36,317 bases of DNA from Armatimonadota bacterium (GCA_023481295.1 JAMCWF010000035.1:14582-50898); one strand, 5' to 3'; shown: positions 306-14,914, counted from the stretch's first letter. The notes: generated from the letters alone by a model not told the origin. Translations and numbers: made by a program.

Positions 306-1538
306 ATGAAAAAGAGCAAAATTGGAGTGGGATGGGCAGCCGTTTTGCTGACCCTCGCACTCCTTGTCGGCGCAACACTTGCCATCCAGGCTCAGCCCGG
401 ATCGCCCTCGCACTGGCGGGCGCACCGTCCCCTGATTGTTCGCGGGATGCTTATTGGTCCGCCTCGCAGAGGTGCACCATTCGTTAAATTCAAGATTAAC
501 TCCTCTAAACCCTCTAAAGGGAAGGGGGGCGGCGGATCATCAACCGTGGTCTACTACGGCCCTCAATCCATATGGTCCGCTTATTACTATCCATTCACGC
601 CCACGGCACCACCGAACTCAGAAGATGATGGCTCTGGCCAGACCATTGCGATCGTGGATGCATATTCCGATCCTTCCATCACTAAAGACCTATCTGCCTT
701 TGACTCTCAATTCGGTCTGCCGGCTCCCCCGTCATTTACGATTGAACAGCCGGAGGGAGAACCGAGTAACAACAGCGGTTGGGCGCTTGAGCAATCGCTG
801 GACGTCGAGTGGGCCCACGCGATGGCGCCCGGCGCTAACATCGTACTGGTTGAGGCGGTATCCCCTTCATTATCATATCTTTTAAACGCGGTGCAATATG
901 CAGCGACCTACCCCGGTGCTGAGGTTGTTTCGATGAGCTGGGGCGGCAGCGAATTTCCAGACGAAAGCTCCTACGATTCCTCCTTTAGTAGTTCCAGCGT
1001 GACTTTTGTCGCTGCGTCCGGCGATTCACACAGTGTTTATTGGCCTGCCGCTTCGCCCGACGTGATCGGTGTGGGCGGCACGACACTGGAGATGAAGAGA
1101 ACAACCATCAGCGAAACGGCCTGGTCTGACAGCGGGGGCGGCATTAGCGCGTACGAGAGTGAACCGGGCTACCAATTAAATTTCGTTAGTAGTGGGGACG
1201 GAACACGGCTGGGCGAAACGGGGAATATGCGCGGTGTTCCAGATGTGAGCTATGATGCAAACCCGAATACCGGTTTGCTGGTATTCTATAATCGTACTTG
1301 GTACGTAGTAGGCGGCACCAGTTGCGGCGCGCCCCAGTGGTCGGCGATTGTTGCGCTCGTTAACCAAGCTAACCAGAAGATATCACCACTCGGGGGAGGG
1401 GCGGGATCAGACCTGTATTCCGCCGCGACCTCGAATTACAACGCATATTTCAGAGATATCACGAACTCAGGTTTCGGTTATGATTTTTACACCGGGTTGG
1501 GAAGCCCCGATGTTAATGAATTAATTTCCGATCTGTAA
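306..1538 (+). CDS. Secreted S53 (sedolisin/kumamolisin-like) serine-carboxyl peptidase
   Basis: Signal peptide; GQTIAIVDAY; EQSLDVEW (catalytic ExxxD); SMSWG; ASGDS (oxyanion Asp); PDVS; GGTSCGAPQWS (catalytic Ser); C-terminal GYDFYTGLGSP Ca-site motif. Confidence 0.92.
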   Translation: MKKSKIGVGWAAVLLTLALLVGATLAIQAQPGSPSHWRAHRPLIVRGMLIGPPRRGAPFVKFKINSSKPSKGKGGGGSSTVVYYGPQSIWSAYYYPFTPTAPPNSEDDGSGQTIAIVDAYSDPSITKDLSAFDSQFGLPAPPSFTIEQPEGEPSNNSGWALEQSLDVEWAHAMAPGANIVLVEAVSPSLSYLLNAVQYAATYPGAEVVSMSWGGSEFPDESSYDSSFSSSSVTFVAASGDSHSVYWPAASPDVIGVGGTTLEMKRTTISETAWSDSGGGISAYESEPGYQLNFVSSGDGTRLGETGNMRGVPDVSYDANPNTGLLVFYNRTWYVVGGTSCGAPQWSAIVALVNQANQKISPLGGGAGSDLYSAATSNYNAYFRDITNSGFGYDFYTGLGSPDVNELISDL

Positions 1539-6766: not shown

Positions 6767-7160
6767 TGACCTCCCTTTCTCGGTATTTGACTAGATCTAT
6801 TTCAGCGGTTGCTAACCTTCAGCCTGCCGCCTATACGACGCTTGATAGTCGGTCTTTCGTCACTCGGATGAAATTCAGCGGCTGCGATCGGCGAACCCAT
6901 CAAACGAGTTTATATTCGCTTCCGTCGGTATTTAACCGAAATCCGGTCGATTTCCTCCAGGGAAACGGATCACCCGTCTGGGAAATCGTCCTCGTATTGA
7001 CATTGTAGAAATCCACACGAAATGCATTCGTTGCCTTGACAATTCAGACCGCTCGTGCGATAATAACAGACGCTGAGCCGTTCTATCCGAGTGTCTTGCA
7101 ACGTTGTTTTATTGCAATAATGGCTGTGAACCCACATTTGGATCGCGAGGAGAACTGGCA

Positions 7161-7409
7161 ATGAAGCAACCACCTAGAGGTTTGATCCTCAGCCGGGCAT
7201 TGCTGGAGTTAATTCAAGCCAGCCTGGATAGGCGAACCACCAACCACCGTGACCTCGCAGCGCAACTCTGCAAGTCATCGGAGACGGTGCGCACCGAGTT
7301 TGCTCAGATCAGGGAAAAGCTAGGCGCCAAAACCCTCTTTGAGGCGATATTGATCGCAGTCCAAAAAGGTTGGGTGAAGCCGCCCCCCCCGCAGGATGAT
7401 GGATCTTGA
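7161..7409 (+). CDS. Stand-alone LuxR/NarL C-terminal HTH regulator (82 aa)
   Basis: GAGGAG SD then ATG at 7161, preferred over the track start at 7104. LAAQLCKSSETVRTEFAQIREKLGAKTLFEAILIAVQKGWV fits the LuxR HTH pattern. No receiver or ligand-binding domain. Confidence 0.8.
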   Translation: MKQPPRGLILSRALLELIQASLDRRTTNHRDLAAQLCKSSETVRTEFAQIREKLGAKTLFEAILIAVQKGWVKPPPPQDDGS

Positions 7410-7429
7410 ACCCTGCCGATTTACGAAAA

Positions 7430-7449
7430 AATACCTCAATTGAGGTATT
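7430..7449. promoter_or_regulatory. Perfect 20-bp palindrome, NarL/LuxR-type 7-2-7 operator
   Basis: AATACCTCAATTGAGGTATT is its own reverse complement. The core TACCTCA-AT-TGAGGTA resembles inverted NarL heptamers (TACYYMT). Confidence 0.75.
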
Positions 7450-7477
7450 CACAAGCCAATCGGACATATCGTAGAAT
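7448..7477 (+). promoter_or_regulatory. Sigma70-like promoter for the precursor operon
   Basis: TTCACA (7448-7453), 18-nt spacer, TAGAAT (7472-7477). The -35 overlaps the edge of the palindrome. Confidence 0.55.
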
Positions 7478-7547
7478 ATCGCTGATGGTTCGGTAATATG
7501 ATCAATAATCAGTTACCGGACTAAATCCGGAGAAAGTAAGCGTCGGA

Positions 7548-7760
7548 ATGGAAAGTTTAAACCCATCACAAACGCAGGAATGCTTTACCCCATTCGTGAT
7601 GCTCTGGGCAAAAAGCGTGCCGGCGGGATCGTTTTACGGGCCCCAGGCTCAGTTTTCGGAGGCGAGCGGCGGATTTCGCATCGATCCGGAAGATACGGAC
7701 GCCGAAAATAGCAATGAAAACACACATCACATTGAGTCGAGCATTTCGTACACTTGGTGA
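7548..7760 (+). CDS. Putative graspetide (ATP-grasp RiPP) precursor peptide, 70 aa
   Basis: First ORF after the promoter and about 700 nt upstream of the ATP-grasp gene. PFVMLWA recalls the microviridin leader PFFARFL. The C-terminus is rich in D/E and S/T, and hairpins follow the stop. Confidence 0.62.
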   Translation: MESLNPSQTQECFTPFVMLWAKSVPAGSFYGPQAQFSEASGGFRIDPEDTDAENSNENTHHIESSISYTW

Positions 7761-7791
7761 TATGGAAAAAAACATAGCGAATTCCATATCA
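7758..7791 (+). other. Hairpin 1, starting at the precursor stop codon
   Basis: TGATATGGAA (7758-7767) and TTCCATATCA (7782-7791) form a perfect 10-bp stem with a 14-nt loop. Confidence 0.7.
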
Positions 7792-7829
7792 TTGTGACAG
7801 GTAGGGAATGCTCACGATTGAAGAAACTA

Positions 7830-7871
7830 TCTCCATCTTGCCGTAAAATATCCTCTATGGCAAGATGGAGA
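7830..7871 (+). other. Hairpin 2, between the precursor and the HEAT gene (no U-tract)
   Basis: TCTCCATCTTGCC (7830-7842) and GGCAAGATGGAGA (7859-7871) form a perfect 13-bp stem, extendable by 3 pairs. Confidence 0.75.
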
Positions 7872-7886
7872 CGAAGGAATTGATTT

Positions 7887-8459
7887 ATGAACCGAATAAA
7901 AAAGAGGATCTTATTTTCAATCCTTGTTTGCTGTTTTCTAGGAGGCATTATTTATCTTACAGGATGGGTTGGAGGGAGATTCGGTGGTTCAGTCAATGGA
8001 TTCCCGCAACAACTCGTCCCTAGAGTACTACACCTAACACCGCAGACAGTGCAGGTATGCCAGCAGCTCAATGCCTTTATTGGTGTTAGACCAGGTGTAG
8101 GACCACAGAAGACACATTATAACCGTCCGGAATTCGACAAACTTCTTTCATATATCTACTACCCCGACAAGTCACCTGGCGATTGGATGGTAAATGGTAC
8201 AGGGGTAGGCACATTATATTTTGTACATCTTCCGAAGAATGATCCTGCTTTAAGGCAGTATGAGAGGGCGTGGATGGTAAAAGTTGTAAACGATTTCATA
8301 GAACACCCTCTGCCGGTGATTCGGTGGGAAGCCGCACACATTGTGGATGTTCAACATTTGAAGAGGGCAGTTCCGGCATTGCAATCTGCGCTGAAAGTTG
8401 AGAAGAACCCTGTCGTAGCCAAAGAGATACGGGCCGCGATTAAGGCATGTAATAAATAG
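7887..8459 (+). CDS. N-terminally membrane-anchored HEAT/PBS-lyase-repeat protein
   Basis: Basic N-terminus plus hydrophobic helix ILFSILVCCFLGGIIYL. C-terminal HPLPVIRWEAAHIV...RAVPALQSAL..EKNPVVAKEIRAAI follows the HEAT pattern. Confidence 0.65.
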   Translation: MNRIKKRILFSILVCCFLGGIIYLTGWVGGRFGGSVNGFPQQLVPRVLHLTPQTVQVCQQLNAFIGVRPGVGPQKTHYNRPEFDKLLSYIYYPDKSPGDWMVNGTGVGTLYFVHLPKNDPALRQYERAWMVKVVNDFIEHPLPVIRWEAAHIVDVQHLKRAVPALQSALKVEKNPVVAKEIRAAIKACNK

Positions 8460-8469
8460 GTGCAACCGC

Positions 8470-9552
8470 ATGAAAAAGCCGTATGTTTTTATTATTTCAC
8501 AATTTTTCGAGCCAAACGTTGATGCGGTGATCTCCAGATTAAACCAACGCGGTGTGTCATATTTTCGATTAAACACCGAGACAATTCCACTAATTACGAC
8601 TATAAGTCTTTATGAAGGCGCCGAGGAATTATACACGATAATTTCATGTGATGGCAAGCAGGTTGACACGCGCTGCATTACATCGGTATGGCGACGCCGA
8701 AATGGAGAGTTCGTTTACCCGAACGTTTCATGCGCACAGGAACGTGGGTTTATCAGGCACGAATCCGCCAGCATGCTTCACGGTGCTTTTGAAAGTATGC
8801 GTTGTTCATGGGTTAATCATTTTATGAGTGATTACCGAGCAAATGTAAAACCTTATCAATATGAGATAGCAAAGCAGGTTGGACTGACGGTTTCGCGAAC
8901 ACTAATCACCAATGATCCCGATGCGGTTAAAGAATTCGCAAGATCTTTGCCAGTGCCAGTGTTGTTTAAACCTGTTATTGGGTTAACGACCGGCGGGCCA
9001 CCCAATTTTTCGGCTGAAATCCAAGCCACGTATGATGGTAAATTCAATATCCCACCTGCTATACCGGAATCCCGTGGCTCGGAAGTTAGGGCATTATTCT
9101 CTCAAGTCTTAGACGATGATAAAATTAAACACCTTAATACTATCGCTGGTTGCCCAGCAATATTCCAAGAATATATAAAAAAGCGTGTCGAAATACGAAT
9201 TACAATTATTGGTAACGATATGTTCCCAGTAGAAATACATTCTCAGGATCGTGAAGATACTAAAGTTGATTTTCGTGCGCAAACTCTGCTAGAAACCTCT
9301 CAATTTCTTCACCATGAGGTCCATAAGTTGCCTGATGATATCAGTGCTAAACTTATGAAATTGATGAAAGAATTAAACCTTGTTTTTGGATGCGTAGATA
9401 TGATATTAACACCGAATGGTGAATATGTTTTTTTAGAAGTAAATACGGCCGGTCAATGGGGATGGATTGAGCACTTAACCGGATTAAAGATCACCGATGC
9501 GTTAACTGATTTGCTCATCCGAGGATCAATAGATTCAGAATATAACGTATGA
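8470..9552 (+). CDS. MvdC/MvdD-family ATP-grasp RiPP maturase (graspetide synthetase)
   Basis: FRLNTE; SVWRRR; WVNH...ANVKPYQYEIAKQVGL..SRTLITND; CPAIFQEYIKKRVEIRITIIG; IHSQ...VDFR; FGCVDMILTPNGEYVFLEVNTAGQWGWIE. Confidence 0.9.
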   Translation: MKKPYVFIISQFFEPNVDAVISRLNQRGVSYFRLNTETIPLITTISLYEGAEELYTIISCDGKQVDTRCITSVWRRRNGEFVYPNVSCAQERGFIRHESASMLHGAFESMRCSWVNHFMSDYRANVKPYQYEIAKQVGLTVSRTLITNDPDAVKEFARSLPVPVLFKPVIGLTTGGPPNFSAEIQATYDGKFNIPPAIPESRGSEVRALFSQVLDDDKIKHLNTIAGCPAIFQEYIKKRVEIRITIIGNDMFPVEIHSQDREDTKVDFRAQTLLETSQFLHHEVHKLPDDISAKLMKLMKELNLVFGCVDMILTPNGEYVFLEVNTAGQWGWIEHLTGLKITDALTDLLIRGSIDSEYNV

Positions 9553-9577
9553 CATCCTTTGCGTAAGATAAGCCAAT

Positions 9578-11239
9578 ATGAAAGAATCCAATAATAAAAT
9601 TTTTGAGTCTAAGCAATTAGATCCAGTTGAAGGAAATAATGTCAAAAATAATGTTACGGTGAAAGCACCCGACAAGGCAGAAAGGGCTGCCGATCTTATC
9701 GTCTGTACCGGCATTTTAGCTTACGCTGTATTCTACGGGTTTCTATCAGTAAGACGGGTAATCCGATTAGAAGCCGGCGCCTTCGATCTCGGAATTTATG
9801 ACCAAGCAATCTGGCAAATAGCCCATTTTCAGCATCTATTCAGCACCGTGCGGGGGATGAACCTTTTCGGCGATCATTTCACTCCAATTCTATTTCTATT
9901 GGCTCCATTGTACTGGTTCTTCCCGGAGCCGCAGGGGTTGGTCGTTTTTCAAGCCATCGCGCTAGCCCTTGGTGCATGGCCGATATACCGAATTGCCCGG
10001 CGGCATTCTGTATCTCCTTTCCTGGCTACCGGACTTGCTCTATCTTACTTGATGGCGCCGGCCCTTGCCTATCCTCCCCTCTTCGACTTTCATCCGAACG
10101 TGCTCGCCGCACCCTTGTTGTTATTTGCAATCGATTCGGTGGAACGTGAAAACTACCGAATATTTGTAGTTTGGATAACGCTGGCTTTGCTATGTCGCCA
10201 AGACATTGCTTTAAGTGTGGCGGTGCTTGGGTTGGCTATCATCCTAAGAACCTTCTCGATTCGAGGAAATAATCATTATCATGATGAACCCGATCTCATA
10301 AACGATCAACGAGTGGCAAGACGCCGACGCGCTCGATTCATAGCGGGTATCTTAACGATGCTGGCCGGTATTTTATGGTTAATGGGCAGTATGTATATGA
10401 TTACCCTGGTATCCGGTCATGTGACAGGTTATGTTGCTCTCTATAGTCATTTCGGTCGTACACCGCTTCAGATCATTGAAAACGTTACACTGCATCCAAT
10501 CCGAACGATTTCCTATGTTTCCAATCCTGCAACGGCTGATTTTATATTACAACTTATTCTACCAACCGCTGGTCTTTGTCTTTTGTGCCCAGAAATATTA
10601 ATGGTGACGCTTCCAGAACTTGCAATGGATATTCTTAGTGACCGCTGGATTATGCAGACGATTCGCGCTCAATATACCCCGGCAATTCTTCCATTTGTTT
10701 ATGCAGCGGCCGCCGTTGGTTTAGGACGTTTGATGGCGGCGCTACACCGTTTTGAACTGGTTCCACAAATAACCGAGTCATTGGCGGGCCTGATTTTTGT
10801 TCTGTTAGTAGGTTTCTGTTTTTGGAGTTACGGCCCCAGGGACATCTTTCATGAAATTTGGTCCGGTTATTTGACTGAAACCGTGTTGCAAGAGCGGGAA
10901 GCATTACTGTCCAAAATACCGGCAGCGGCTTCAGTATCCGCTGGTTGGGACTTTGTGGTCCCGCTCGATCATCGGAATCAAATCTATATGTTTCCAAATC
11001 CATTCATTAAGGCTTGGTATGGACCCGGAACCGCAGTTATCCGACAAGAGGATTTGAACTATCACCCCCCGCTACCGACAAAATTAAAACCCTTGTTGGC
11101 AAAGCACCCAATAGATTATATCGTAGCAACCGACTCAGGCCAGTATAAATCGTTGCTTAAAGCAGCAGTTAAATATGGTTTATATAAGATCGTATCTAGA
11201 AAAGGCAAGATGATTATACTGAAACGATCCAATCAATGA
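9578..11239 (+). CDS. DUF2079 polytopic membrane protein (GT-C/PMT-like putative glycosyltransferase)
   Basis: FDLGIYDQAIW; GDHFTPILFLLAPLY; FDFHP; many TM helices; C-terminal IPAAASVSA...L.HR.QIY.FP. Confidence 0.85.
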   Translation: MKESNNKIFESKQLDPVEGNNVKNNVTVKAPDKAERAADLIVCTGILAYAVFYGFLSVRRVIRLEAGAFDLGIYDQAIWQIAHFQHLFSTVRGMNLFGDHFTPILFLLAPLYWFFPEPQGLVVFQAIALALGAWPIYRIARRHSVSPFLATGLALSYLMAPALAYPPLFDFHPNVLAAPLLLFAIDSVERENYRIFVVWITLALLCRQDIALSVAVLGLAIILRTFSIRGNNHYHDEPDLINDQRVARRRRARFIAGILTMLAGILWLMGSMYMITLVSGHVTGYVALYSHFGRTPLQIIENVTLHPIRTISYVSNPATADFILQLILPTAGLCLLCPEILMVTLPELAMDILSDRWIMQTIRAQYTPAILPFVYAAAAVGLGRLMAALHRFELVPQITESLAGLIFVLLVGFCFWSYGPRDIFHEIWSGYLTETVLQEREALLSKIPAAASVSAGWDFVVPLDHRNQIYMFPNPFIKAWYGPGTAVIRQEDLNYHPPLPTKLKPLLAKHPIDYIVATDSGQYKSLLKAAVKYGLYKIVSRKGKMIILKRSNQ

Positions 11240-12724: not shown

Positions 12725-13513
12725 TCAATAAGTCTGCAAGATCGCGCCTTTAGGCAGTTTCAGGTCGAAAGTTTTTGAAGGGATCGGTTGATTGATCTGA
12801 TCGCTCACGACCCATTCGCGTATGATGGAGCGCTGACTGACTGTTTGAGTAAGATAATGATGATTCTTTTGTGGAATGAGCACTTTTACGGGAGCAGGGG
12901 GAAGCTTAAGCGATATTTTCATCAACAGATGGGTTTGCTTGTCGATCCACATTTTCAAAACGGCTCCGGCGTTTTGGTGGATCATTTTCAGCGAGCCTTT
13001 AACTACAGAGCAATCACTTCCATTCAACTTTTCACTCCCAACCAACGTTAGGGAACCGATATTGGGCGGTAAAGCACCCTCCAGGGCTAAGAGCAAGTTG
13101 TCAGGAATGGGTTCTATTACTCTCGCCTCCCCTGAAAGCAAGCCATAGAGGGCTTGTGGCGTGCTCGGCGCCGGATACCGTCTATAGAGGCTGTGCAAGC
13201 CATAATAGACGATGACCTGGCTTCCGTCGGAAGCGATAGTAGTCGAGCCGGCAATCGGATTTTGCAAAACCAATAGGAGGTGATTGGGAGGTTGCCAGAT
13301 TATCCGTGATGAGTTTGCAATGATCGTTACCTTGTTCCCAGTTACGGTGTATGTTTCGGCATTGCCCACCAATTGAAGGGATTGCACGCTTCGATAGGTG
13401 GCCAGCATCTGGTTCACGATATCCTGTGCAGTCTGTCCACAGGCCATTATGGGCTGCAGCAGAGCGAAGGCAACCGCAGCGACGAGTTCGATCCGTTTTA
13501 GTCGTTCGTTCAA
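12725..13513 (-). CDS. Exported LolA-like / DUF2092 fold protein
   Basis: Signal peptide; WQPPNHL; SDGSQV.VY; GSEKLNG..C.VV; MWIDKQTHLL; NQPIPSKTF. The TTG start overlaps the upstream stop. Confidence 0.7.
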   Translation of the reverse strand: MNERLKRIELVAAVAFALLQPIMACGQTAQDIVNQMLATYRSVQSLQLVGNAETYTVTGNKVTIIANSSRIIWQPPNHLLLVLQNPIAGSTTIASDGSQVIVYYGLHSLYRRYPAPSTPQALYGLLSGEARVIEPIPDNLLLALEGALPPNIGSLTLVGSEKLNGSDCSVVKGSLKMIHQNAGAVLKMWIDKQTHLLMKISLKLPPAPVKVLIPQKNHHYLTQTVSQRSIIREWVVSDQINQPIPSKTFDLKLPKGAILQTY

Positions 13514-14415
13514 CTCTGTGGCTCCTGAATGATTTCATGGGTGCCTGGTTTGGGGATGTATCGAAAGGCATCCGGCGGAAATGGTGGATTTGCGACCACG
13601 GCGGAGAAAGTCTCATCGGTTTTAAGGATGATTGAGCGTGACTGTGCAGCCGGAGTTCCTGAAGCAGGCGCCCACTCGAGATCGTGAGTAACTCTCAATA
13701 AGCAATAGGTCTGCTGGTCTACGTAGGCAGTGACGATCGCCTTCATCAGCCGATAGCCTTTATTTGGGAGGCCGGCCGCTTTTGCGATGGATTGCAACCA
13801 AGATGTCGAGATGTCGCTTCGGATGACCAGCGCTTTGCGCCCGTTGACTTGGGAGCTTCCAGCCAAGACTGGATGCGCGATCTCCATAGGAATGTTAGTG
13901 TTAGCCATAAATACGATCGCATCGAGGAGCTGTGGAGCGTCATGAGTGATCTTTGCGCAAACTTCCTCCAGCGTTTTCGGCGCCACCTCGCGCGTGTAGC
14001 TGTCATGGGCGCCATAGTAGTAGGCGATGGTATTTCCGTCACATTCAACCAGTATCTCACCTTCCTGGGGGTCATTGCTCTTTAAATAGACTCGATTGGG
14101 GCGTTGAAATCGGAATACCGTCGTTTGATAATATGGCACGGCCGATGCGAAGCCCAGTTGGATTTTAGCGCTGGACTGGGATTGAAAGCTGTTTAACTTA
14201 TGATAAGCGGCGCTAACGCGATTCAGTATGATGCGTGGATCGCTCGTGGGAGGATAATTTTGAATCGGCATTTGGTAGCCGCTGAAGGTTATTTTGGCAT
14301 CGCGAGCGGTGGTCACTTTCAAATCGGGTTTTGACTGATGGCAACCAGCCATGCTAATCAGTAGCACCGCAAGAAGCGGATAAGCCAATGCCAATCGGCA
14401 CCATTTTACCGTCAT
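13510..14415 (-). CDS. LolA-like / DUF2092 lipoprotein
   Basis: Lipobox MAGC; FQRPNRV; CDGNTI.YY; YVDQQTYCL; NPPFPPDAFRYIP.PG. Confidence 0.72.
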   Translation of the reverse strand: MTVKWCRLALAYPLLAVLLISMAGCHQSKPDLKVTTARDAKITFSGYQMPIQNYPPTSDPRIILNRVSAAYHKLNSFQSQSSAKIQLGFASAVPYYQTTVFRFQRPNRVYLKSNDPQEGEILVECDGNTIAYYYGAHDSYTREVAPKTLEEVCAKITHDAPQLLDAIVFMANTNIPMEIAHPVLAGSSQVNGRKALVIRSDISTSWLQSIAKAAGLPNKGYRLMKAIVTAYVDQQTYCLLRVTHDLEWAPASGTPAAQSRSIILKTDETFSAVVANPPFPPDAFRYIPKPGTHEIIQEPQS

Positions 14416-14914
14416 AGTGGGTAAACTTCCTTCATCAATTGGTGTTGCTGCCCCCTACCGGGAATTCACAGCCCCTTATCTGGAGTATAACCGAGATTCA
14501 GTGTACCGGTCAAATTTATGAATGCTTTGTTCATCGCCCCATTTGAAATCGTACATTTCTTTGGGTCAAGATGATCGCCATTATCATTGTTGCCAATCGT
14601 TTGATCTTTCTTTATGGGACAAGCTCTGAGTCAAGTTCCCACCTACTTGTTGCACAACTCGTGCCAATAAGCGGAACAAGAAACCCTGTCAGGCAACTCG
14701 GTCACAAAACCGACGATTGTCTCGCTGAGATGGGAATTGAACCAGTACCGGTGTTAAGTGGGCAGACCAGAGCAGGGGTATGATATGGTTATTCCCGGCA
14801 TTCATAGGGTGTAGCGCGATCCACATCACCATTCGGGAGAATGCGTGGGGGGCATAGGGAAATTTTCTACATTCAGGTTATTCGGACCGTTACGATGAAG
14901 GAGGCAAGCATATC

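Follow-up and report, generated by a model that had tools for sequence, protein, structure and literature searches.

A probable graspetide precursor family encoded beside a distinct clade of ATP-grasp ligases in Armatimonadota

Introduction

The ATP-grasp ligases that produce graspetides are under development as peptide and protein stapling tools. To our knowledge, the characterised examples in the available literature all join an upstream nucleophile to a downstream acid. According to the article text of one study, graspetides 'typically' have the nucleophile N-terminal, and a ThfA variant with the reversed order was left unmodified by a promiscuous ligase (PMC12291112). Rosaritide, an ester-only product with three rings made by the TIGR04187 ligase MirB, is described with donors S8, S9 and T11 preceding acceptors D22, D24 and D26 (PMC13097080).

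The known range of graspetides has been set out in two surveys. Makarova et al. (2022) report 174 precursor families, about half with a 'Phhx(1,2)h' leader motif and about half with GG (PMC8939145). Carter et al. (2026) give 43 groups and 21,584 predicted graspetides and introduce partner-protein dependence; by their article text, many of the new groups carry DUFs or proteins without a matching model (PMC13097080).

Here we describe a locus in a metagenome-assembled genome of an Armatimonadota bacterium. The window, meaning the whole stretch of DNA analysed, is 36,317 nt long (GCA_023481295.1, JAMCWF010000035.1:14582-50898). An original prediction, made from the window sequence, proposed that positions 7548–7760 encode a precursor with a PFVMLWA leader, an SGG site that may be where cleavage occurs, and a Lys-free core in which acids mostly precede hydroxyls. 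We find that the region very probably encodes a real graspetide precursor, belonging to a small and apparently uncharacterised family. Its gene is consistently found a short way ahead of an MvdC/MvdD-type ATP-grasp ligase gene, and these ligases form a single distinct clade.

The locus

The locus consists of five co-directional genes: a small HTH gene, the precursor, P0003, the ATP-grasp ligase P0004 and a DUF2079 membrane protein. Features are listed in window coordinates, with the evidence for each.

7104..7409, + strand: small helix-turn-helix protein, LuxR/GerE-like by a weak match (NCBIfam E 0.00094, no Pfam match)
7448..7477, + strand: promoter-like site TTCACA-18-TAGAAT, 70 nt upstream of the precursor start
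7548..7760, + strand: probable graspetide precursor gene P0001, 70 aa (translation, homologous loci, alignment, profile search, codon comparison)
7590..7610, + strand: predicted leader recognition motif P15-F-V-M-L-W-A21 (P15, F16 and W20 invariant, 20/20)
7653..7673, + strand: second conserved block F36-S37-E-x-x-x-G42 (F36 and S37 invariant, 20/20; Gly equivalent to G42 in 51/55)
7674..7757, + strand: probable core peptide F43-W70 (alignment, residue-order counts)
7756..7793, + strand: hairpin 1, 12-bp stem, beginning at the precursor stop codon (folding of 7755–7890)
7830..7871, + strand: hairpin 2, 16-bp stem, in the gap ahead of the P0003 gene (folding)
7887..8459, + strand: P0003, 190 aa, predicted N-terminal membrane helix and HEAT/ARM-like helical repeat domain (AF2 model)
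8470..9552, + strand: ATP-grasp peptide ligase (graspetide synthetase) P0004, 360 aa (PF21068, PDB matches)
9578..11239, + strand: DUF2079 multi-pass membrane protein (PF09852, 1.2e-60)

Precursor ORF. The precursor ORF lies inside the 477-nt gap between an ORF end at 7409 and an ORF start at 7887, 710 nt upstream of the MvdD-type ATP-grasp gene. ATG 7548 is the earliest start downstream of an in-frame stop. No Shine-Dalgarno-like sequence precedes it at canonical spacing, and a GGAG at 7529–7532 is 15 nt away. Translation of the + strand gives a 70-residue protein identical to the one originally described: P15-FVMLWA, then E38-A-S-G41-G42, then F43...W70. The F43-W70 segment has seven acids (D46, E48, D49, D51, E53, E57, E63), seven Ser/Thr (T50, S55, T59, S64, S65, S67, T69) and no Lys. 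Folded alone, P0001 has a pLDDT of 59.5 and no predicted structure, which is expected for a RiPP precursor. It has no match among the precursor families of Pfam and NCBIfam.

The genome carries one copy each of the peptide and the ligase in an assembly that is 64.6% complete. A 70-aa ORF at 14571–14783 was considered as a second precursor and rejected, as it lacks the leader motif and the search of the genome with P0001 gave a single match. The completeness estimate itself looks too high, because the assembly has 1.23 Mb, compared with about 3.5 Mb for G136, a genome of the same genus that is 97% complete.

HTH gene and non-coding elements. The weak NCBIfam match of the 7104–7409 protein is to the C-terminal HTH of an autoinducer-binding regulator. 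The protein is 43% identical to the ORF at the same position in G136, and its true start is possibly an internal ATG at 7161. Three promoter-like sites were found in the region against 2.8 expected, which is chance level, so the site at 7448–7477 is a lead only.

The 127-nt gap 3' of the peptide gene contains two strong hairpins, both without a T-run; hairpin 2 is therefore not a classical terminator. Folding of 7755–7890 gives −41.9 kcal/mol (z −4.75), and none of 200 shuffles folded as well. Folds at this place vary among the 20 related precursors, from z −6.1 to +1.25, and are strong in some, not all. No intrinsic terminator was found in 6900–8600, and Rfam gave no match at E ≤ 1 in 6800–8600. 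Near-identical contigs from three runs (at least 99%) differ solely at 7873, G to A in one run, an intergenic position just 3' of hairpin 2. No RNA is listed for 7000–9600, and one metatranscriptome from a related study gave 0 contigs. Elsewhere in the window, two neighbouring DUF2092 genes at 12725–14415 (− strand), predicted to be periplasmic, have no apparent relation to the cluster.

Conservation across related loci

A word-index search with the P0001 peptide returned only itself, and homologous loci were reached via the ligase in genome and metagenome collections. A close ligase homologue occurs in 4 of 300 other genomes of the phylum (G136, 69%; G109, 67%; G130, 51%; G296, 50%). In an index of 5.8 billion proteins, about 40 cluster representatives had at least 42% identity (293–562 bits), followed by a drop to 224 bits and 37%.

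The original prediction proposed aligning homologous short ORFs near related ligases as a check, and its reading of P0001 as the precursor of an ATP-grasp-modified RiPP with a PFVMLWA leader is supported. Each of the 17 distinct loci with enough upstream DNA carries, a short way ahead of the ligase gene, a homologous short ORF with this leader or a pair of them. These are the window, L013, L014, L015, L016, L019, L045, L047, L049, L050, L052, L053, L054, L055, L057, L058 and L059; L046 and L056 are exact duplicates and were left out of the count. In L018, L048 and L051, the upstream DNA is shorter than 175 nt and shows no such ORF. The 20 distinct precursors from these loci are only 16–54% identical overall, with P15, F16, W20, F36 and S37 invariant, so that PF..W is present in 20/20. 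The D/E/S/T segment is conserved along with the ORF, at positions 53, 57, 59 and 63–65, so neither of the failures of conservation that would have counted against the original prediction is seen. The PFVMLWA sequence also matches the 'Phhx(1,2)h' leader motif as given in the text of Makarova et al. (PMC8939145).

Searched with a profile of these 20 sequences, a set of 1.84 billion representatives yielded 43 proteins at E ≤ 1e-3, 22 of them at E ≤ 1e-10 and P0001 included, with lengths of 59–190. Removing seven repeats of locus sequences from the 42 other hits gives 55 distinct family members in total. Ten of the proteins found were looked up, and all were unnamed or 'hypothetical protein' from metagenome sources only.

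Codon comparison shows how the frame is evolving. Each of five close relatives was compared with the window over a 26-codon block of the leader, giving 7–10 synonymous and 8–10 nonsynonymous codon differences; the codons drift while the conserved amino acids stay, as in a translated, constrained frame.

In some relatives the precursor frame extends upstream without a stop (L013 5697–6113; L047 514–1017), and in L047 it runs through the frame of the HTH gene. Because the frame is open upstream, public gene calls of 128–190 aa (P0128, 128 aa; P0126, 190 aa) mask a precursor of about 70 aa. In L019, the ligase at 951–2023 is in two ORFs of 220 and 126 aa, yet tblastn covers residues 6–356; this split in an Armatimonadales contig reflects a frameshift, a stop codon or an error in assembly.

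The ATP-grasp ligase

P0004 matches the MvdD pre-ATP-grasp domain PF21068 at 45.4 bits against a cut-off of 27. Its PDB matches are MdnB (5ig8, 7.4e-41) and MdnC (5ig9, 8.1e-36), and also AMdnB and CdnC. The alignments with MdnB and MdnC run end to end, over both halves of the protein. D267-F268-R269 is kept, with few or no exceptions, in 39 relatives, and the text of a preprint on PsnB describes a DFR region as common to graspetide ligases (10.1101/2021.03.09.434688).

No NCBIfam RiPP-ligase model scores P0004 above its curated cut-off. The top model is TIGR04187 (237.6 bits, E 1.9e-70, below a curated cut-off of 350), and the MvdC/MvdD equivalog scores are also below their cut-offs (TIGR04184, 205.5 versus 475; TIGR04185, 204.5 versus 425). 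In a 20-row tree, the 14 ligases of the family form one group with support 100/100, and the subclade of five that includes the window's ligase has support 100/98. Precursor subtypes track the ligase clades, and related loci have one ligase each. Ligases that are 26–36% identical come with different precursors, which have PFMVRFAE- or PFGLRFA-type leaders.

Core peptide and ring polarity

Conserved positions. In the 20-sequence alignment, an acid stands at position 53 in 18/20 and at position 63 in all 20. Position 57 is Glu in 18/20, Ser/Thr fills position 59 in every sequence, and position 60 is Gly in 15/20 (His in the window peptide). Ser/Thr occupies position 64 in 15/20, position 65 in 18/20 and position 67 in 14/20. 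The core residues conserved across the family are thus E53, E57, T59, E63, S64 and S65. D49, D51, S67, Y68 and T69 are fully kept only in the six-sequence subclade of the window; the remaining 14 sequences have a gap in the column of D49, and 12/20 have an acid at position 51. The core of the wider family is approximately [ED]-x-x-E-[TS]-T-G-x-x-P-E-x-A-D-T-T-x-x-F. The window's subclade is without the middle Glu, and all its members keep D49-x-D51 on the upstream side and [ST]67-Y-T69 on the downstream side.

Leader/core junction. The proposal that GG may mark the cleavage site is not supported across the family: Gly-Gly occurs there in 16 of 55 members, and conservation is confined to its second Gly (G42), kept in 51 of 55. 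This Gly is followed by Leu in 31 of 55. With it, F36-S37...G42 forms a second block of conservation, at which the boundary between leader and core can reasonably be placed. From the alignment, the block probably either closes the leader or serves in processing or positioning. Searching the window's own genome (64.6% complete) for the C39 peptidase family PF03412 gave no match. The family is present in three of four relatives, on other contigs or far off, never beside the cluster.

A Pfam scan found no recognisable leader peptidase or exporter inside the cluster. A secreted subtilase-like peptidase is encoded 6 kb upstream (window 306–1538, + strand, PF00082, 3.9e-12). Its homologue in the same-genus genome G136 (L013 6738–7979), 70% identical, adjoins the cluster and is divergent from the HTH gene. 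The protein is a possible candidate for the leader peptidase, for which same-genus synteny is weak evidence.

Residue order. The original prediction described the core as having acids mostly N-terminal and hydroxyls C-terminal, and no Lys. The acid-first bias is real: the fraction of acid/nucleophile pairs in which the acid comes first is 0.86 in the window core and has a median of 0.63 in the family (n = 54). The division is not a clean one, as the residues conserved family-wide are interleaved (acid 53, E57, T59, acid 63, S/T64, S/T65). Absence of Lys likewise describes the window peptide and five of the six subclade members but not the family, where Lys occurs in 22 of 55 cores.

A [DE][STC][ST] motif lies within the last 16 residues in 42 of the 55 members, and in 37 of these 42 no acid follows it. 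The conserved C-terminal hydroxyls, if esterified, therefore have an upstream partner. Since conserved hydroxyls come after the last acid, the family is a direct test case for the opposite ring orientation.

Ring T59 to E63, a short ester of standard polarity, is the most likely. An ester-only product in which D49, D51, E53 and E57 are the acceptors for the C-terminal S64, S65, S67 and T69 is possible but on the unlikely side. Such reversed links would be unusual, given that the nucleophile is described as typically N-terminal (PMC12291112) and that the rosaritide donors come first (PMC13097080). Besides the pair fractions and the C-terminal motifs, the lack of Lys in the window core is in keeping with it, as is the subclade's full retention of an upstream D-x-D and a downstream [ST]-Y-T that share i,i+2 spacing. 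The best antiparallel register matches D/D/E to S/T in four of six subclade members. Tested across the family, however, antiparallel complementarity of acids and hydroxyls is no better than in shuffles (mean 3.09 pairs versus 2.70; p ≤ 0.05 in 2 of 55). The same core also offers pairs of standard polarity, from T50 to E53 or E57, from T59 to E63 and from the invariant S37 to E53 or E57. The restriction of D49 to six sequences, and of an acid at position 51 to 12 of 20, speaks against acceptors at these positions as a family trait, and a G296-type sister branch of the same ligase family has nucleophile-first cores that include Lys (pair fraction 0.10–0.33). Conserved acids may also serve enzyme binding rather than ring formation, according to the text of the PsnB preprint (10.1101/2021.03.09.434688). 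Weighing these points, we regard reversed polarity, an idea drawn from the order of residues in the peptides, as a reasonable but tentative hypothesis that is unlikely on balance.

A more specific arrangement would combine both polarities in a ladder-like hairpin. Here an inner T59-E63 ester would be enclosed by outer links from E57, E53 and, in the subclade, D51/D49 to S65, S67 and T69, and a dedicated membrane-anchored HEAT-repeat protein, whose gene duplicates with that of the precursor, would bind the product in the periplasm. We consider this ladder doubtful as a whole. If true, it would contain the first natural graspetide linkages with the acceptor ahead of the donor, a topology that, as far as we know, is unreported for characterised graspetides.

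Neighbouring genes

P0003 has no homologue in Pfam, NCBIfam or the word index, and its seven homologues come from related loci. A homologue lies between the peptide and the ligase in all loci of the closest subclade, and in that subclade only. The AF2 model (pLDDT 84.1) has an N-terminal helix followed by seven helices. HEAT_2 leads the Atlas comparison (score 0.91, TM 0.61), and the VIA match to CpcF has a Z of 11.6, a value that in helical repeats can arise by chance or from shared architecture. A Foldseek search of the PDB with the model gave nothing at E ≤ 0.001 (best E 0.011). Four basic residues stand ahead of the membrane helix, which by the positive-inside rule suggests that the repeat domain faces outward. 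An outward-facing domain argues against a role as a cytoplasmic partner of the ligase and for binding of the exported peptide.

The DUF2079 gene 3' of the ligase is conserved in the closest subclade, and G136 has it in the same position (7.3e-60). G109, L045 and L047 have ORFs of comparable size downstream of the ligase. Beyond this subclade, peptide and ligase are found together in loci that have neither P0003 nor DUF2079.

One relative has an expanded arrangement: in L014 (G109:C39, 5056–7679, − strand), three P0003 paralogues and two divergent precursors stand in tandem ahead of one ligase. This co-duplication of precursor and P0003 resembles the style of toxin-immunity systems. Separately, four sister-branch loci (L015/L017, L016, L019, L050) have a DUF1559 protein with a prepilin-type N-methylation motif preceding the precursor; the assignment is Pfam-confirmed in L017, L016 and L050 and was read from the sequence in L019.

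Proposed biosynthesis and alternatives

The locus has sequence-level features of the graspetide class: an adjoining MvdC/MvdD-type ligase, a conserved leader motif, and conserved Asp/Glu and Ser/Thr positions in the core. By analogy with the enzymology of microviridin and plesiocin ligases, the leader P15-FVMLW-A21 would dock on the ligase and open its active site. The ligase would then phosphorylate core carboxylates with ATP and close macrolactones with Ser/Thr hydroxyls. The near-invariant F36-S37...G42 block would mark the leader/core junction. Ring residues would be drawn from E53, E57, T59, E63, S64 and S65, to which the subclade may add D49/D51 and S67/T69. The product would probably be handled outside the cytoplasm by the co-conserved membrane proteins, HEAT-like P0003 and DUF2079.

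Two alternatives to a ligase substrate were weighed. P0001 could be a real small protein that acts as a secreted signal or ligand for P0003 and the HTH regulator, or as a substrate of DUF2079. This would explain why the P0003 gene always follows the peptide gene in the closest subclade, why the pair is tandemly duplicated in G109 and why DUF2079 is co-conserved. Outside that subclade, however, the peptide keeps the ligase and is found without P0003 or DUF2079, which makes the ligase the constant partner, and its leader motif is of a type that the text of Makarova et al. describes as binding such ligases (PMC8939145). We judge this alternative quite improbable. The ORF could instead be a chance intergenic frame, or the real gene could be the 73-aa ORF on the opposite strand (7566–7787). 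The ORF is indeed short, and neither a match to a family model nor a canonical ribosome-binding site supports it. Against this stand residues that are invariant across sequences 16–54% identical, synonymous drift over conserved residues and the 43 profile hits that include P0001, and we judge both of these readings very unlikely.

As a precursor modified by its adjoining ligase, P0001 would add a RiPP family to Armatimonadota. P0003 may represent an accessory protein of a new kind: by its predicted structure it is a HEAT-like repeat anchored in the membrane, and its gene duplicates along with that of the precursor.

Comparison with known graspetide systems

We found nothing in the literature on graspetides or ATP-grasp RiPPs in Armatimonadota beyond a general genome-mining tool, and none of the graspetide literature among the matches listed had the core motifs ETTG, ADTT or DTTF. 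The article text of PMC8939145, whose family members are listed in supplementary tables, contains 'Armatimonad' and 'ETTG' 0 times; that of PMC13097080, with members likewise in supplementary tables, contains 'Armatimonadota' 0 times. The core of this family likewise appears in neither article text.

The nearest solved structures to P0004, MdnB and MdnC, belong to microviridin (group 1; MdnA, MdnB, MdnC). The microviridin leader motif PFFARFL, as given in PMC8939145, and PFVMLWA of P0001 are alike in P, F and the hydrophobic/aromatic spacing and differ in sequence. The gene order, a short precursor upstream of the ligase, is also microviridin-like. The P0001 core, in contrast, is without a TxKxPSDx(D/E)(D/E)-type motif (TxRxPSDxDE in the text of the PsnB preprint, 10.1101/2021.03.09.434688), and is acid-first and Lys-free. 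Microviridins have two ligases, for the ester and the amide, whereas the window's genome gave one match (64.6% complete). Unlike microviridin clusters, this one has no acetyltransferase or ABC transporter.

Plesiocin (group 2, TTxxxxEE in the text of the PsnB preprint) is made by PsnB, which has the DFR motif in common with P0004 but is distant from it (E 1.9e-7 over 50 residues). The wider-family E-T-T-G-x-x-P-E-x-A-D-T-T has a T-T...E...D stretch that could nest in a similar, hairpin-like way. P0001 differs from plesiocin precursors in having no TTxxxxEE, LFIEDL leader or repeated cores, and its subclade is without the middle Glu.

The best model for P0004, TIGR04187, is the 'ATP-grasp ribosomal peptide maturase' (GRASP_SAV_5884), which it matches below the cut-off. 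Rosaritide (group 21), whose ligase belongs to this model, has a PpiC-type isomerase as partner (TIGR04500); the neighbour here, P0003, is a membrane-anchored HEAT-like protein without such a match. The locus is of the same type as the catalogued but uncharacterised graspetide families of the two surveys: a short precursor with a 'Phh..h' leader beside an MvdD-like ligase, often accompanied by proteins of unknown function.
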